Under the pieces are notes generated by a model that ran no database searches, was not told the DNA's origin, and saw nothing but the letters and a program-made list of their open reading frames with translations. A program made the translations under genes and the position numbers. From Candidatus Methanoperedens sp. (GTDB lineage: Archaea > Halobacteriota > Methanosarcinia > Methanosarcinales > Methanoperedenaceae), in NCBI GenBank assembly GCA_012026835.1, contig VEPN01000016.1:19328-51327 (forward strand): DNA of 32,000 nt, written 5' to 3'. Each line of letters starts with the position of its first letter. Within the stretch, counting starts at the first letter, position 1. Of this stretch, positions 12,419-27,077 are shown one piece after another.

Positions 12419-14143
12419 ATGCTTTTGAAGGAGAAGATATTCGCCGGGGAAGGGAAGATCAAGGCTGATACGATACTGAAAAACTGCATGATCGTTAACG
12501 TCAACACAAAAGAGATCACAAAAGGCGATATTGCCATTAGTTCGGGGTTCATCGCTGGTATTGGCGACGTCGATGAATTGAAAGGCCAAAAAACGGATTC
12601 TATCGATTTAAAGAACGCCCATGTCTGCCCCGGATTGATAGACGGGCATATGCATTTTGAATCGAGCATGGTAACACTTACGCAATTTGTGAAACAATCC
12701 ATGCTTCATGGAACAACAGGTATTGTCATTGACCCTCATGAGATCGCAAATATCCTTGGTGCAAAAGGTATCAGGCTCGTGCTTCGTGAGACAAAATGGC
12801 TTCCGATCGATGTTTTTGTGACAATCCCATCATGTGTGCCCTCAAGCCTGCTTGAGACATCAGGTGCCCGGCTGGGGCTAAATGAGATCACAAAGTTCCT
12901 GCGCACAGAATTCGTGGTGGGGCTTGGCGAGATGATGGATTATCCGGCGGTTCTTGGCGGCGCCCCCGAAAAGCTCAGGATAATTTCAGAAACTCTTGAA
13001 AAAAAACTCGTCGTTGACGGTCACTGCCCCGGTTTGCATGGAAAGGAGCTTTTCGGATATCTGAGCGCCGGGATATCAAGCGACCACGAGTCCGTAACTT
13101 ATGAAGAAGCGCTTGAAAAGGCGCGCCTGGGAATGAAGATAATGCTTCGGGAGGGCTCGGCCGCAAAATGCCTTGATGATTTCATCCCCAAGCTGGTTCG
13201 TGATGGAATCTCTCTTGAAAACTTTTTCTTCGCTACTGATGACAAGAATCCCGCAGACCTTGTGAAAGGACACATGGATGTGCTGGTAAGGGCCGCGATC
13301 AGTCTCGGGATAGACCCAATCCAGGCGATCTCAATGGCCACAATCAACACGGCACGCCATTACAGGGTGGACCAGCTTGTTGGATCGATAAGCATAGGCC
13401 GGAGGGCGAATTTGATAATACTTGATGACCTGAAACATTTCAGGATCAGGAACGTAGTGGTAAGGGGCAGATTAAATCCAAGAATTGAAAAAATAGAATA
13501 TCCCCGATATGTTTTCAGGACATTGGAATATAAAAAAATAGTACCTGATGATCTGAAGCTCAAATCCCCTGGTAAAATTGTATTTGCCCATGTCATAGAA
13601 ATCGTACCTGGGAAGATTATCACAAACATGACCATAGAAGAGCTTAGCACTGAGAAAAATGTTGTGCAACCTGATGTGGGACGCGATATCCTTGCCATTG
13701 CGGTTATAGGACGACATGGGAAATCCGGAAACATCGGCCTGGGTTTTGTCCGGGGCTTTGGTCTGAAAGAAGGAGCTCTTGGCCAGAGTATTGCCCATGA
13801 TTCGCACAATGTCGTCCTTGCAGGTACGAACTTTGAGGATATGGCGCTTTGTGCGAACAAGCTCAAAGAATTGCAGGGCGGGATAGTGCTTGCCAGAAAC
13901 AGGGTTATAGATTACCTCAGCCTGCCTTTTGCAGGTATTCTTAGCACTGATAACGTAAATAATGTTGATATAAAACTGAAAAAACTGCATAGCAAGGTCA
14001 GGAAAATGGGATGCAGGCTCGATGCGCCTTTTACACAGATGTCTTTCCTTTCACTGCCGGTCATACCCTCTCTCAAAATAACTGATAAAGGACTGGTAGA
14101 TGTGGATGAGTTTAAAATAATAAAGCCTATAAAAAGCCCCTGA
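12419..14143 (+). CDS. ade: Adenine deaminase (amidohydrolase superfamily)
   Basis: The 574-aa protein has the metal-binding motif PGLIDGHMHFESS and the length and organisation characteristic of adenine deaminase. Confidence 0.88.
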   Translation: MLLKEKIFAGEGKIKADTILKNCMIVNVNTKEITKGDIAISSGFIAGIGDVDELKGQKTDSIDLKNAHVCPGLIDGHMHFESSMVTLTQFVKQSMLHGTTGIVIDPHEIANILGAKGIRLVLRETKWLPIDVFVTIPSCVPSSLLETSGARLGLNEITKFLRTEFVVGLGEMMDYPAVLGGAPEKLRIISETLEKKLVVDGHCPGLHGKELFGYLSAGISSDHESVTYEEALEKARLGMKIMLREGSAAKCLDDFIPKLVRDGISLENFFFATDDKNPADLVKGHMDVLVRAAISLGIDPIQAISMATINTARHYRVDQLVGSISIGRRANLIILDDLKHFRIRNVVVRGRLNPRIEKIEYPRYVFRTLEYKKIVPDDLKLKSPGKIVFAHVIEIVPGKIITNMTIEELSTEKNVVQPDVGRDILAIAVIGRHGKSGNIGLGFVRGFGLKEGALGQSIAHDSHNVVLAGTNFEDMALCANKLKELQGGIVLARNRVIDYLSLPFAGILSTDNVNNVDIKLKKLHSKVRKMGCRLDAPFTQMSFLSLPVIPSLKITDKGLVDVDEFKIIKPIKSP

Positions 14144-14294
14144 GATTTATGGATAAATTATAGCAATGGAATAACTATATTGGTAGTTACGGAGTTAGAA
14201 CTACTTGTAAGAAAGATAAATTAACTTATACTTTTCAAAAAACCCAAGAGTATAAATCACAAATTATTTAAGGCATCAGGATAACATTAATCTG

Positions 14295-14314
14295 AAAAAC
14301 GGGATAAAAACGGG
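14295..14314. promoter_or_regulatory. Direct repeat AAAAACGGG x2, spaced 11 bp, upstream of the cytochrome operon
   Basis: AAAAACGGG-at-AAAAACGGG lies about 60-80 nt upstream of the ATG at 14373, in an AT-rich leader. It is a candidate regulator site only. Confidence 0.2.
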
Positions 14315-14372
14315 TACAATATCCACAATGGATAGGAAAACGTATTAAAATGGTTAAGAGAGGTAAAGAATA

Positions 14373-15329
14373 ATGTTACTTATTAGTTCGAGCGTATGCT
14401 CATTATTGAAAAAAAATTATGTGGTGATTTTAATTGCAGCATTAATTTTATTAATCCCGGACGTCTCTGCCCAGCAGGACGTATCCTGTTACCACTGTCA
14501 TACAGCGGTAGTCAATGAATTCAGGAATAACATCCATTACCAAGGGGGCTTCTCCTGCGCGGACTGCCATGGAGGCGTTTTGGAGTCTAACACTACTGTA
14601 ATATCAGCCAATGCGATGTCGGGGAATTTTATTGGAAAGCCTTCAAGAAACAATATAACCGACATATGCTCAAAATGCCATAGTCGGGAAGCAAGCGACT
14701 ACAAACAGAGCATTCACTGGTATGCCATTGAGAAAGGCCATCCTGAAGCAGCGACATGCACGGACTGTCATGGAGTACATGAGATACGTGCAATAGCGGA
14801 TAACAAGTCATTATCGAACCACCAGAACAGTCCTGCTACATGTGCAAAGTGCCACTCGAACAAGGAATTAATGAGCGCATGGTATTATGGCATCAAAACT
14901 GACAGGATCGATACTTATAAAGAATCTTTCCACTGGAAGGCGCTACGAAATGGATACAACGTAGTTGCAACCTGCGCGGATTGTCACAATAATCACGTCA
15001 CAAAATCGCATGAAGATCCTTCATCAAGCACATATCCCGACAACCTTCCCAAAACATGCGGCAAGGAAGGCTGCCATCCAGGGGCAAGATTTGACGCCAA
15101 GGTAGCAGCGGGGCTTGTACATGATAAGGAATCATTGCATACAGGAGAACTTGTATTCAACCAGTCACGCCTTGATCCGCAGATGAAGGCATATTTCCTC
15201 GGCCCTTTTGATCTTGCTTACTGGATAGCTATATTTTTCAAGATACTGACAACAGGCGTCATAGGTCTCTTTGCTGCCATGGTAATTCTGGATTTCGCCT
15301 CAAGATTCAAGATACACAGGAGATGGTGA
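14373..15329 (+). CDS. Membrane-anchored multiheme cytochrome c (six CXXCH plus one CX4CH)
   Basis: There is a signal peptide (..IPDVSA/QQD). Heme motifs are CYHCH, CADCH, CSKCH, CTDCH, CAKCH, CADCH and CGKEGCH. A C-terminal TM helix is present (WIAIFFKILTTGVIGLFAAMVIL). Confidence 0.9.
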   Translation: MLLISSSVCSLLKKNYVVILIAALILLIPDVSAQQDVSCYHCHTAVVNEFRNNIHYQGGFSCADCHGGVLESNTTVISANAMSGNFIGKPSRNNITDICSKCHSREASDYKQSIHWYAIEKGHPEAATCTDCHGVHEIRAIADNKSLSNHQNSPATCAKCHSNKELMSAWYYGIKTDRIDTYKESFHWKALRNGYNVVATCADCHNNHVTKSHEDPSSSTYPDNLPKTCGKEGCHPGARFDAKVAAGLVHDKESLHTGELVFNQSRLDPQMKAYFLGPFDLAYWIAIFFKILTTGVIGLFAAMVILDFASRFKIHRRW

Positions 15330-24301: not shown

Positions 24302-24376
24302 GCTCCGATAGTGTAGCACGGCCAATCATGTCAGACTCTCACTCTGACGACTGGGGTTCAAATCCCCATCGGAGCA
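24302..24376 (+). tRNA. tRNA-Glu (CUC)
   Basis: Manual fold: acceptor GCTCCGA/TCGGAGC, GGCCAATCAT D-region typical of tRNA-Glu, anticodon stem TCAGA/TCTGA with loop CTCTCAC (anticodon CTC), T-arm TGGGG-TTCAAAT-CCCCA. An A/T-rich TATA-like TTTAATAA lies about 30 nt upstream. Confidence 0.9.
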
Positions 24377-24607
24377 TTTGGTGTTTTTCCTTTTCTGGAA
24401 TACCTGGAGCTGGATTTTATCACAATTGGGTCAATTTAACGATGTACAAAAAGGAAGAATGATATCGTTTCTATCCGGGTCCCGGATTAACTCTGAAAAT
24501 GAATTCGCTGTATAACAGTGGTTCCTCATCTCACAGGACAGTTTCAAACATGGTAGATAATCTTTTTTGACGCGCTTTTTTAGCTTGGGACACCAGTATT
24601 TCATTTT

Positions 24608-24811
24608 CTATCCGGGCTTCGGCTGGCCCATCGGAATTATTCCAGGTTTGAGATCTGGCCTTATGCTCTTTGGCGCCATGACAATTTCATGCTCTGTCCC
24701 GCACTTGGGACATTTTGTATTACCGCTTTCATTCCACTTGTATGAATTCCCGCAGTCGCATTCAATAATAAGCACAAGCTTGATTGCTTTAACTTCGTGT
24801 ATCTTAGCCAT
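24608..24811 (-). CDS. Small zinc-ribbon protein (candidate regulator)
   Basis: The 67-aa protein has CDCG...CPKCG. A GAGGA SD lies 5 nt upstream of the ATG. It is divergent from the rightward module. Confidence 0.6.
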   Translation of the reverse strand: MAKIHEVKAIKLVLIIECDCGNSYKWNESGNTKCPKCGTEHEIVMAPKSIRPDLKPGIIPMGQPKPG

Positions 24812-24907: not shown

Positions 24908-25252
24908 TTGAAAAAGAGCTACATAAAATGCCCTTACTGCCCGGATGAAGTAAGCATAAGCGGTTCAAGCATGCATGTCAGGAACAAGCATCCTGACAAG
25001 TATGAGGAATTCAAAAAGAACTTTGCCGAGATCAAGAAAACTGCTGTTGTAAAAGAAAGTGCAACTAAGATTCAAGTCCCGGGCTCTGAACCTCCAAAGA
25101 TAGAGGACAAGGATAAACAAACACCTCCACCTCCCCAGGAGCCGTCAAAAGAGGTCCCAAAAGAAGCTCCCAGGGCAGGTGATGAAAAGCCCAAACAGGG
25201 CGGATCGTTTCTCGACGAATTCAACAAGTGGCTCGACAGCCCGGACTTCTGA
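24908..25252 (+). CDS. C2H2-type zinc-finger protein with a Pro/Lys/Glu-rich tail
   Basis: The 114-aa protein has CPYCPDEV...HVRNKH. It starts at TTG with a GGTGA SD 8 nt upstream. The low-complexity segment is QTPPPPQEPSKEVPKEAP. Confidence 0.6.
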   Translation: MKKSYIKCPYCPDEVSISGSSMHVRNKHPDKYEEFKKNFAEIKKTAVVKESATKIQVPGSEPPKIEDKDKQTPPPPQEPSKEVPKEAPRAGDEKPKQGGSFLDEFNKWLDSPDF

Positions 25253-25379
25253 GTTCGTTGATGAAAAGTTCGAAGTCATCCCTGTAAAAGCGCAGGTAAA
25301 CCAGACAGAAGAAAAGGCGCCGGAATCCCAGGGATTGAGCAGCACCCCGATACCTGATGATTACACAGAAGAGGACGTG

Positions 25380-25736
25380 ATGTTCATTTCTGAGAGCGTG
25401 GCAAGCCTTCCAAGCATATTTTTCCCGAAGGTCCCTCTGCGAACTAAAGAGCAGGTGATACCCTTTAATCATCAGTTCTACCGGTACTGCAAAAAGAAAG
25501 GCATCAACCCCTTTGAATTCTTCTTTGACGAGTTCGGCCTTTTGATGGCAGGCGCGGGTCTTGCAGGCGGGATATGGCGCGATTACAAGGATAATTACGG
25601 CAGCACCAGGAGGGAAGAAACTAAAGAGGATAAGAAGCTGTCGGCAGACTTTGAACATGAAAAGCAAGTAGCAGAGCAGAAAGAAAAGGATATCCGGGAC
25701 GGCAAAATAACCACGGGAGGGTCCGCAGTCCCATGA
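25380..25736 (+). CDS. Hypothetical protein with one TM segment (start uncertain)
   Basis: The frame is open from 25179, but the first ATG beyond the upstream stop is 25380. The hydrophobic segment is FGLLMAGAGLAGGIW and the C-terminus is charged. Confidence 0.5.
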   Translation: MFISESVASLPSIFFPKVPLRTKEQVIPFNHQFYRYCKKKGINPFEFFFDEFGLLMAGAGLAGGIWRDYKDNYGSTRREETKEDKKLSADFEHEKQVAEQKEKDIRDGKITTGGSAVP

Positions 25737-25933
25737 AGTTTGATGAAGCCAGGCTTGATAGGATGAATCCATACAGCAAGCAATATCAGGACCAGCTTGA
25801 CAGGATACTGTACGGCAACAACAGGGTCGAGGATAAAAGTATCTTCAAGGAAGTGATGGATGCTGATAGCAAGAGGGAACGGGAGGGACGAAGGTTAGTC
25901 AGAGCGATGCATTGGAGAATGCAGCAGGGATGA
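25733..25933 (+). CDS. Small hypothetical protein
   Basis: The 66-aa protein has ATGA overlaps with both neighbours. Confidence 0.5.
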   Translation: MKFDEARLDRMNPYSKQYQDQLDRILYGNNRVEDKSIFKEVMDADSKREREGRRLVRAMHWRMQQG

Positions 25934-26277
25934 ATATGGGAATAAGCGATAAGCTTAAAAACATGGGTAAAAGCACAAAAGATCAGGCTGTTTTATCTGC
26001 GCTATCCCCGGCTATGCAGCTGATAGACAGATGGACCAAGGATATCAAGCCTGAGAACGATATTTCAAGGTTCATAGATGAGAAGTACGGCATCCTGTTT
26101 GAAGCGCAGTCATCCGAGGCAAACGGCATGATGGCCCTGCTTACAAAGCTTGCAATAGCAGAGGCAAATACAAACCCTGAGTGGGTTGAAAATAAGCTGC
26201 TCAGGTTCTACGACGAGTTCAGGGTATGGTATAAGGAATACCTGGCAAGGAAGGATATGCAGAATGGCCCGACCTAA
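25930..26277 (+). CDS. Hypothetical helical protein
   Basis: I chose ATG 25930 because it forms an ATGA overlap with the upstream stop. This gives 115 aa. Confidence 0.55.
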   Translation: MNMGISDKLKNMGKSTKDQAVLSALSPAMQLIDRWTKDIKPENDISRFIDEKYGILFEAQSSEANGMMALLTKLAIAEANTNPEWVENKLLRFYDEFRVWYKEYLARKDMQNGPT

Positions 26278-26470
26278 AACCAGTAAACTATCATCCAGTG
26301 AATCGAAAGAAGCCATCCGGATTTTTGGCACTTTCCAGGAACGCGGATTCAGTATTTCAAAAGATAAAAACGGTTATTTCATCCATACTCACAGATGCAG
26401 ATCCAAGTCATACAAATCCCTATCTCGTATCCCTGCAAAGGTTATCAAATTCATAAAAAGCACTGGATGA
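26264..26470 (+). CDS. Small basic hypothetical protein
   Basis: The 68-aa protein starts at the internal ATG (MARPKTSKL...) and is rich in Lys/Arg/Ser. It is a possible nucleic-acid binder. Confidence 0.45.
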   Translation: MARPKTSKLSSSESKEAIRIFGTFQERGFSISKDKNGYFIHTHRCRSKSYKSLSRIPAKVIKFIKSTG

Positions 26471-26471
26471 T

Positions 26472-27077
26472 ATGCAGATAAAAAGCAGTGATCGCATCTT
26501 TGTAGCCGGCAAGACAGGATCCGGAAAAACTACCCTGGTAAAAAAAATGCTTTTTCCCATGTACACCAGGCGCGTGTTTTGGGATATCAAACTTGAAAAC
26601 AGCGATCTTGCATTCTGCTGCACGATCTGCACGACCCCGGATGAGCTGAGGTCCAGCATCAAAAAAGGAAAAACCAGTATCCTCTATCAACCTAAGAGCC
26701 TGGAGCCTTTTGATTTTAACCGTGTATGCCAGATATTGTATGAAACCGGCAATTTCACTTTGTTCGTGGATGAAGTATCGAGGGTATGTACTCCATCATG
26801 GATAGAACCCTGGCACGATGAGATCATGACGAGAGGCCGGGGACGTGGAGTAGGGATCGTCAATCTCACTCAGAGGCCCAGGCGCTGTCATAACACAGTG
26901 ATATCAGAAGCTGAACATTTCTTCATATTCAGGTTGCAATTAGAAACTGATATCGCGAAGATCAAAGAGATCCTTCCCAGACAGTGGGCCAACCAGGTAT
27001 CATCATTGCCGTACCACCACTGCATTTATTCTGATAGTGTCGGCACGATCAAGCCTCTCGCGCCGATCAGGTTATGA
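26472..27077 (+). CDS. FtsK/HerA-superfamily P-loop ATPase (A32-like packaging or DNA-translocating ATPase candidate)
   Basis: The 201-aa protein has Walker A VAGKTGSGKTTL, Walker B LFVDEV and a downstream NLTQRP motif like the FtsK ATQRP block. Confidence 0.75.
   Translation: MQIKSSDRIFVAGKTGSGKTTLVKKMLFPMYTRRVFWDIKLENSDLAFCCTICTTPDELRSSIKKGKTSILYQPKSLEPFDFNRVCQILYETGNFTLFVDEVSRVCTPSWIEPWHDEIMTRGRGRGVGIVNLTQRPRRCHNTVISEAEHFFIFRLQLETDIAKIKEILPRQWANQVSSLPYHHCIYSDSVGTIKPLAPIRL

Follow-up and report, generated by a model that had tools for sequence, protein, structure and literature searches.

A compact packaging ATPase of a probable double jelly-roll provirus at tRNA-Glu(CUC) in a Methanoperedens-like archaeon

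Does a compact ATPase of the FtsK/HerA superfamily, found alone in archaeal DNA, fill virus particles with DNA or serve a plasmid or a cell? The question is raised by a gene for a protein of 201 amino acids (aa) at positions 26472-27077 of the stretch analyzed here, 32,000 nucleotides (nt) in length (the window; G000:C27:19328-51327). An earlier examination of the sequence (the original prediction) had proposed that icosahedral viruses containing a membrane use such a stand-alone protein as their packaging ATPase, with pleomorphic viruses and plasmids as alternatives. We consider it highly probable that the protein is the packaging motor of a PRD1/STIV-type double jelly-roll virus, which resides as a 17.7-kb provirus (the island) where the tRNA-Glu(CUC) gene of an archaeon, probably Methanoperedens, has its 3' end. 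The island extends past the window, and features beyond the window end are given as positions in locus L003 (window position minus 23172).

The open reading frame (ORF) runs on the plus strand from an ATG at 26472 to a stop codon ending at 27077, and it is intact. The motifs that had first drawn attention to it are all in place, with Walker A (GKTGSGKTT) at residues 13-21, Walker B (LFVDEV) at residues 97-102, and an NLTQRP block at residues 131-136. An alignment of 28 relatives, which range from 26 to 87% identity, shows no variation at G13, G16, G18, K19, T20, D38, D100, E101, G122, R123, R135, or D160 and almost none at Q134 and P136. The start codon is tightly coupled to the ORF upstream, with only 1 base between it and the stop codon of that ORF. 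When 5.8 billion proteins were searched by words, the yield was 58 relatives with identities down to 26%, nearly all of them 190-250 aa long. The family profile matched 2,078 of 1.84 billion cluster representatives at E<=1e-10, and the best 150 of the 2,078 are mostly stand-alone proteins of ~190-260 aa that align from end to end. Non-synonymous divergence (dN) from four relatives was 0.24-0.43; synonymous divergence (dS) was saturated in three of the four pairs, and the one usable pair gave a dN/dS of ~0.1. The ATPase ORF is real, intact, and conserved, and not a chance reading frame.

The relatives of known function are packaging motors of tailless viruses. When the family profile was searched against all PDB sequences, the first match was B204 of STIV2 (4kfr, E 1.6e-18) and the second B204 of STIV (4r2h, E 4e-18), with profile positions 7-202 aligned to B204 residues 2-204. 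Comparison by hhalign gave 99.5% with PRD1 P9 (E 3.5e-22, 186 columns) and 98.7% with the ATPases of both MetSV and SH1. The GR...[ST]QRP block of the ATPase aligns with 'NRHAGLGLILSTQR' of B204 in the PDB profile search and with 'GRSKKIPMIILSQRP' of P9 in hhalign. A tblastn search of 50,697 phage records returned 112 matching records, headed by phiG2 (1e-15). About 90 of the 112 were listed, and all of these belong to Tectiviridae, Corticoviridae/Vinavirales, MetSV, Sphaerolipoviridae, or related tailless phages; the functionally named target genes among them are packaging ATPases or 'terminase large subunit'. No tailed-phage group or plasmid appeared in the organism tally of these matches, and no pleolipovirus appeared in that tally or among the matches listed. 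In PHROGs, the family phrog_2666, annotated as terminase large subunit, matched the ATPase with an E value of 1.5e-31.

The same superfamily also supplies motors for conjugation, segregation, and immunity, and the protein might be one of these, either a HerA defense ATPase or an FtsK/HerA/TraD/Zot-like motor of plasmid or cellular type. The HerA models of PADLOC and NCBIfam match residues ~117-185, with a core around R123-P136, in agreement with the FtsK/HerA placement proposed earlier; the PADLOC models cover residues 117-181 with a best E value of 1e-10. Pfam gives sub-threshold P-loop matches to AAA_22 and to Zot, FtsK_SpoIIIE, and DUF87, the last three with E values of 0.013-0.041, and the island carries a ParA-like gene. 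The HerA matches, however, are only local. Just ~65 of the 570-690 positions of the PADLOC profiles are covered, the NCBIfam model HerA_antiphage reaches 19.7 bits where its cut-off demands 850, and the HerA-type matches in the PDB (3e-14 and weaker) span ~70-80 residues around the arginine/TQRP block, whereas B204 aligns over its full length with an E value better by orders of magnitude (1.6e-18). FtsK was matched in the PDB at ~1e-7 and a conjugative coupling protein at 2.7e-5. The 201-aa protein also lacks the large multidomain layout (~500-700 aa or more) of FtsK and of cellular and defense HerA proteins. Pfam scans of the island proteins revealed no conjugation genes, a capsid gene is present in the island, and among the loci examined no relative of the ATPase lies on a relaxase or type IV secretion plasmid without a capsid gene. 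A plasmid or cellular function is thus very improbable.

Because the matches to B204 and P9 run from end to end while those to HerA and FtsK are only local, the ATPase, judged from its sequence, belongs within the FtsK-HerA superfamily to the branch of compact viral packaging ATPases and not to the cellular or conjugative motors. It combines features of the A32/P9/B204 type, namely Walker A and Walker B motifs, the arginine-sensor block, compact whole-length homology, and linkage to a capsid gene. The profile comparison with B204, P9, and sphaerolipovirus ATPases that the original prediction had proposed therefore came out in favor of its packaging motor of membrane-containing icosahedral viruses, as tectivirus, corticovirus, and MetSV ATPases are likewise among the best matches. 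Its pleolipovirus, plasmid, and Zot/TraD alternatives found no support, as the best matches are viral packaging ATPases and a capsid gene is present. The outcome that it had named as speaking against itself, best matches to cellular or conjugative ATPases and no capsid fold in the element, is the reverse of what was found on both counts.

The lineage of the virus is a further matter. In a maximum-likelihood tree of the ATPase, in which the reference sequences form long branches and the deep nodes do not resolve, the protein groups with uncultured sequences (P0001-P0042), and no reference virus falls within its immediate clades. One reference, a Vibrio Vinavirales phage, nests on a long branch among more distant uncultured rows of the tree. 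The phylogeny that had been called for puts the ATPase among uncultured sequences but leaves the deep branches, and so the lineage, without resolution. These deep branches, together with the equal scores of SH1 and MetSV, leave some room for the packaging ATPase of a single jelly-roll (sphaerolipovirus- or simulovirus-like) virus, or for a pleomorphic-virus NTPase. To tell the double from the single jelly-roll lineage, the ATPase by itself is not enough, and it is the capsid protein that makes the distinction.

The gene of this capsid protein (L003 9973-11151, minus strand) could not be seen by the original prediction because it lies beyond the window end, on the opposite strand. It encodes 392 aa, carries no annotation, and has 86 database homologues; one of them touches the Pfam family P2_C, the C-domain of the PM2 coat protein. 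A phmmer search of the protein against the PDB returned nothing. An AlphaFold2 model built from 42 sequences reached a pLDDT of 92 and a pTM of 0.91, and Foldseek matched it first to the STIV major capsid protein (MCP; E 7.5e-15) and then to PBCV-1 Vp54, PM2 P2, and PRD1 P3; in a viral library the top matches were the capsid proteins of Wip1, STIV, and GC1. Alignment with VIA-align gave a Z score of 24.9 to the STIV MCP (2bbd; rmsd 2.9 A over 285 residues), 23.5 to the coat protein of the PRD1-like PR772, ~23 to PRD1 P3, and 22.2 to PM2 P2, against only ~13 to cellular double jelly-roll proteins. Likeness to STIV B345 at the level of sequence profiles was not significant (hhalign probability 0.8%, E 0.07). 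On its predicted fold, the 392-aa protein is a double jelly-roll capsid protein, a single chain with two jelly rolls. With this architecture and Z scores of 22-25 to the STIV, PRD1, and PM2 MCPs in the linked capsid protein, and with pleolipoviruses missing from the ATPase phage matches listed and from their tally, a single jelly-roll or pleomorphic virus is hardly credible as the source of the ATPase.

Next to the capsid gene lies the gene of a 130-aa protein (L003 11166-11558, minus strand), the model of which (pLDDT 90) is an eight-strand jelly-roll sandwich. Its structural matches are generic, the best being a phage cement protein (Z 9.1), with the STIV penton protein A223 at 7.5. The predicted fold makes a penton or minor capsid protein plausible, with penton as a guess. 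A short motif, G-x-HP-[KR]-C-[KR]-x-V, is common to this protein and to a 152-aa protein of the same module (L003 8101-8559; window 31273-31731, minus strand); 10 of 23 residues are identical there (E 0.001), and the two may be paralogous jelly-roll proteins.

The island that joins these genes is bounded by a repeat. The tRNA-Glu(CUC) gene, its integration target, was located by ARAGORN at 24302-24376 on the plus strand, and the last 22 nt of the gene (24355-24376) form the left attachment (att) core. This core recurs with 1 mismatch at L003 18881-18902, equivalent to window positions 42053-42074 and past the window end, where zero chance matches are expected for a repeat of 22 nt; no third att copy was found. 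The island thus runs from window position 24377 to the equivalent of 42074 and ends ~10 kb beyond the window. Its content includes two tyrosine integrases, a VapBC toxin-antitoxin pair, and the ParA-like gene, and its 17.7 kb fall within the range of 15.4-18.2 kb of many related contigs.

Linkage of the ATPase to the capsid protein recurs in metagenomic relatives, drawn from one metagenome scan that returned 17 loci. In L022 (12.3 kb) and L025-L028, a zinc-finger gene, homologues of the <=185-aa and 121-aa proteins of the island, the ATPase, a 130-like gene, and a 392-like gene follow one another on one strand, and the 392-like proteins are 66-71% identical to the island capsid protein. Homologues of the 152-aa and 182-aa proteins follow the capsid gene in L022, L025, and L027, and the order of ATPase, 130-like, and 392-like genes is repeated in L029 and L030. 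Throughout L022 and L025-L030 the linked proteins have 125-130 aa and then 390-406 aa. The longest database contigs bearing ATPase, 130-aa, and capsid homologues have equal sizes (17526, 15818, 15877, 18244, 16806, and 8232 nt), and these equal sizes alone suggest that the three homologues share contigs. The co-occurrence of jelly-roll genes that the original prediction had asked about is therefore found both in the island, which has a double jelly-roll gene, and in related contigs, where the genes stand in adjacent order.

Several observations weigh against the reading as a packaging motor or against a simple intact provirus. No Pfam family matched the ATPase at its gathering score. The capsid block lies ~6 kb from the ATPase on the other strand, the ATPase is followed by VapBC and a short integrase, neither integrase adjoins an att site, and the junctions between the two modules of the island carry no inverted repeats. 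Database proteins are 91% identical to the capsid protein and 97% identical to the 130-aa protein, but the ATPase homologue whose contig has the same length as that of the capsid relative is only 61% identical, a mismatch that indicates module exchange; the island may be a mosaic or two fused remnants. Moreover, 3' fragments of the ATPase gene, starting anywhere from residue 51 to residue 169, stand directly upstream of VapBC in related genomes. They were found on a further contig of G000 (C74; L004 6765-7756), in G006, G007, G013 (three places), G020, and G036, and on metagenome contigs L033-L036; the fragment in G007 lies at most ~20 nt past the 3' end of a tRNA-Glu-like sequence. Because many related genomes keep only such fragments, decay is common in this lineage. 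We read the fragments as probable traces of decayed proviruses that were outlived by the toxin-antitoxin pair.

From the same observations it could be argued that the ATPase is of viral origin and no longer a working motor, being part of an ATPase-VapBC-short integrase remnant beside a capsid provirus remnant without an ATPase. The two modules converge and differ in their affinities (91% for the capsid protein against 61% for the ATPase, to apparently the same relative), the island has two integrases, and G013 shows that a block from integrase to capsid gene occurs without the ATPase. That genome, of a second species, carries a copy of the 22-nt att core, and its integrase, 130-aa gene, and capsid gene are 36%, 94%, and 79% identical to those of the island, with no ATPase between integrase and 130-aa gene. 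The order att, integrase, 130-aa gene, and capsid gene and its orientation relative to att are nevertheless those of G000. Because G013 repeats them, the convergent layout is probably native to the sub-lineage and not a misassembly. The ATPase, for its part, is full length and keeps every invariant residue, with the one usable dN/dS at ~0.1; the island has exactly one ATPase gene and one capsid gene, both intact, in a size typical of related contigs, and no third att copy divides it into two elements. We therefore regard a defunct motor as unlikely. The G000 provirus, with its double jelly-roll capsid protein and packaging ATPase, may be complete and may still be inducible.

Cassettes of an ATPase 3' fragment and VapBC (among them L008, L009, L010, L017, L018, and L019) occur in six or more genomes of the genus, and some are arranged in tandem; L017 comprises two fragment-VapBC cassettes and L009 two VapBC pairs. 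At G007:C11:36326-36433 and G013:C12:50632-50739, sequences matching both ends of tRNA-Glu lie ~108 nt apart, a spacing that suggests an intron-containing tRNA-Glu-like gene in G007 and G013. ARAGORN, with the settings used, missed the tRNA-Glu-like gene of G007, which is directly followed by the ATPase fragment and VapBC.

By analogy with PRD1 P9 and STIV B204, the ATPase would form an oligomeric ring at a capsid vertex, probably beside virus-encoded membrane proteins, and ATP hydrolysis would pump the viral double-stranded DNA into a preformed, probably membrane-lined procapsid. In such a motor, K19 of Walker A would bind the nucleotide phosphates, D100 and E101 of Walker B would coordinate Mg2+ and activate water, R123 or R135 would act in trans, and Q134 would serve as a sensor. 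Small hydrophobic proteins encoded in both modules are candidate membrane and vertex partners. We infer the oligomeric state, the vertex location, and the internal membrane from these analogies. Because the island has integrases and an att site, and no family B polymerase was found among its ORFs scanned with Pfam, a circular genome as in STIV and PM2 is suggested.

The rightward module, on the plus strand, consists of a 114-aa zinc-finger gene, ORFs of <=185, 66, 121, and <=94 aa, the ATPase gene, and then vapB and vapC, after which come a 66-aa zinc-ribbon-like ORF and a 216-aa tyrosine recombinase. Divergent from this module is a 67-aa zinc-ribbon protein (24608-24811, minus strand), a possible regulator with weak zinc-ribbon Pfam matches only. 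The 114-aa protein (24908-25252), first in the module, has homologues upstream of the ATPase in L022, L025, L026, L027, and L028. The next protein (25179-25736), with an uncertain start codon and at most 185 aa, contains a hydrophobic segment and matches no Pfam or PHROG family; it is a conserved module member, as homologues of 30-37% identity occupy the same position in L022 and L025-L028. The 121-aa protein (25912-26277) is also conserved, with a weak match to DUF7172 and homologues of 41-57% identity directly upstream of the ATPase in L022, L023, and L025-L028. The ORF coupled to the ATPase (26186-26470, plus strand), which ends 1 nt before the ATPase start, has at most 94 aa and matches phrog_3666 (function unknown; E 8.6e-14). 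This match is confined to the last 39 residues, the ORF overlaps the end of the 121-aa gene, and it is missing from relatives of the L022 type; the gene itself probably falls well short of 94 aa.

Downstream of the ATPase, VapB (77 aa) and VapC (134 aa, PIN domain) are encoded at 27215-27849 (plus strand; Pfam VAPB_antitox 2.5e-17, PIN 1.5e-13). The short tyrosine recombinase (28171-28821, plus strand; Pfam Phage_integrase 3.5e-26) has at most 216 aa and comprises a catalytic domain only, and no homologue of it occurs in the related loci compared. A stretch of ~100-200 nt upstream of and into its annotated start (L003 4864-5072; window 28036-28244) is 83-87% identical in G000:C74, G006, G020, and L035; the homology ends at the integrase start, and these four loci lack the integrase. 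A recombination junction is one possible explanation of the stretch, a regulatory element another.

The leftward module begins at the right end of the island, on the minus strand, with small ORFs, the 368-aa ParA-like ATPase, a 251-aa protein, and the 309-aa integrase, which has a SAM-like N-domain (2.2e-26). It continues with ORFs of 107 and 67 aa, the 130-aa and 392-aa proteins, and proteins of 144, 139, and 105 aa, of which the 144-aa and 105-aa proteins carry hydrophobic ends, and it closes with proteins of 152, 182, 362, 81, and 79 aa. In the window, the 105-aa gene is represented by its 3' part (31734-32000, minus strand) and runs off the end; the ORF has hydrophobic N- and C-termini. 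Homologues of the 182-aa and 152-aa proteins (30792-31731, minus strand) follow the capsid gene, in unchanged order, in L022, L025, and L027. The 362-aa protein (29517-30605, minus strand) has a C-terminal half rich in Gly, Ala, and Thr and gave no match in Pfam, PHROGs, PADLOC, or the Atlas; a spike or receptor-binding protein would be a guess only. Last come the 79-aa protein, with a C-terminal hydrophobic segment, and the 81-aa protein (29051-29532, minus strand), ORFs without family matches. The point at which the two modules converge has the short integrase on one side and the 79-aa gene on the other. A simple recombinase-mediated flip of one module is unsupported, since the junctions lack inverted repeats. 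A weak NTP_transf_2 match (E 0.003) had suggested an MNT-HEPN pair for the 105-aa and 139-aa genes; this reading was dropped, because the ends of the 105-aa protein are hydrophobic and nothing matched the 139-aa protein.

Methanoperedens is a major anaerobic methane oxidizer, and studies of its mobile elements have mostly dealt with Borgs and large plasmids. For small viruses of this archaeon that form capsids there is, to our knowledge, hardly any documentation. Homologues of the capsid protein and of an ATPase fragment bear the source name 'Candidatus Methanoperedens sp.'; one capsid and one 130-aa homologue are filed under Methylomirabilis, a frequent partner organism of Methanoperedens. 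The host of the virus is, by inference, probably Methanoperedens. Proteins with several CxxCH motifs (heme-binding type) flank the island, at window positions 14373-15329 and, past the window, at L003 19243-19998; from their sequences they are consistent with multiheme cytochromes, as expected for a Methanoperedens-type archaeon.

Of 201 genomes sampled from the order, only G000 and G013 contain the capsid family, and a sample of 400 other genomes from across the phylum contains no member; among the genomes searched, the lineage is thus a rare one. Scans of IMG/VR found no match with the ATPase and none with the capsid alignment, and a scan of genome contigs with alignment A2, in which a single weak pattern was used, found none either. 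In the collection of papers searched, none links Methanoperedens to double jelly-roll, DJR, or Varidnaviria; those listed among its papers that mention a major capsid protein concern Borgs, other large extrachromosomal elements, and the viromes of alkane oxidizers. The kind of element is known, and what look new are the lineage, the apparent host, and the split layout, the lineage because its capsid protein has no sequence similarity to that of STIV and no reference virus falls in the immediate clade of the ATPase. A broader proposal, which we see as evenly poised between right and wrong, is that the island and its metagenomic relatives form an undescribed, roughly family-level group of double jelly-roll varidnaviruses that infect Methanoperedens (ANME-2d), were missed by current virus catalogues, have their morphogenesis module split into convergent halves in the integrated copies, and left VapBC-anchored ATPase relics across the genus. 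The locus gains an identity as a temperate double jelly-roll virus with a packaging motor of known type, and the ATPase, the 130-aa jelly-roll protein, the 392-aa capsid protein, and the tRNA-Glu att site offer markers for such viruses in methane-cycling communities. The question of which lineage the ATPase belongs to is also answered, in that the ATPase by itself indicates a packaging motor of Varidnaviria, while a decision on the lineage comes from the capsid protein only.

Among known systems, the tectivirus packaging ATPases (PRD1 P9, Bam35, AP50, and phiG2) are homologous to the island ATPase, as the hhalign match to P9 and the tblastn match to phiG2 show, and the PRD1 gene order of P9, two small genes, and the capsid gene P3 mirrors the order in the metagenomic relatives of the island. 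Tectiviruses, however, have a linear genome and a protein-primed family B polymerase, the marks of Tectiviridae, whereas the island has integrases and a tRNA att site and no polymerase in the proteins scanned. Sphaerolipoviridae and Simuloviridae (Helvetiavirae) are characterized by two single jelly-roll major capsid proteins, and the linked capsid protein of the island is instead one chain with two jelly rolls. MetSV, which has a homologous ATPase, infects Methanosarcina, a relative of Methanoperedens. Unlike the island, it is a lytic linear virus of 10.6 kb with a polymerase B, and its ATPase falls outside the clade of the island ATPase; small predicted capsid proteins have been reported for it (PMC10342651).

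Further parallels are found in the STIV group. B204 of STIV and STIV2 (Turriviridae; 4kfr and 4r2h) is similar in size to the island ATPase (204-212 aa versus 201 aa), and the two share a single-domain architecture, an end-to-end profile alignment, Walker A and Walker B motifs, and the GR...TQR block. They differ in that their sequence identity is low and B204 sits on a very long branch outside the ATPase clade. In the RefSeq record of STIV (NC_005892; L042), positions 13958-14452, the ATPase is annotated as a 164-aa ORF, 'B164, terminase large subunit'; the solved STIV protein, named B204, has 210 residues, and the RefSeq ORF is truncated at its C-terminus. Like the provirus described here, STIV comes from an archaeon and encodes both a tyrosine integrase and a double jelly-roll capsid protein (PMC5894146). 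Its host is Sulfolobus, in contrast to the mesophilic, methane-cycling euryarchaeon that harbors the island, and the two capsid proteins are alike in fold only: the island has the double jelly-roll fold of Turriviridae and the STIV group and, tested against STIV B345, not their capsid sequence. In the euryarchaeal proviruses TKV4 and MVV, also of the STIV group, a tyrosine integrase accompanies an A32-like ATPase and a gene for a double jelly-roll capsid protein (Yutin et al. 2018, PMC5894146). Likened by this description and not by sequence, such TKV4/MVV-like proviruses are elements of the same kind as the island.

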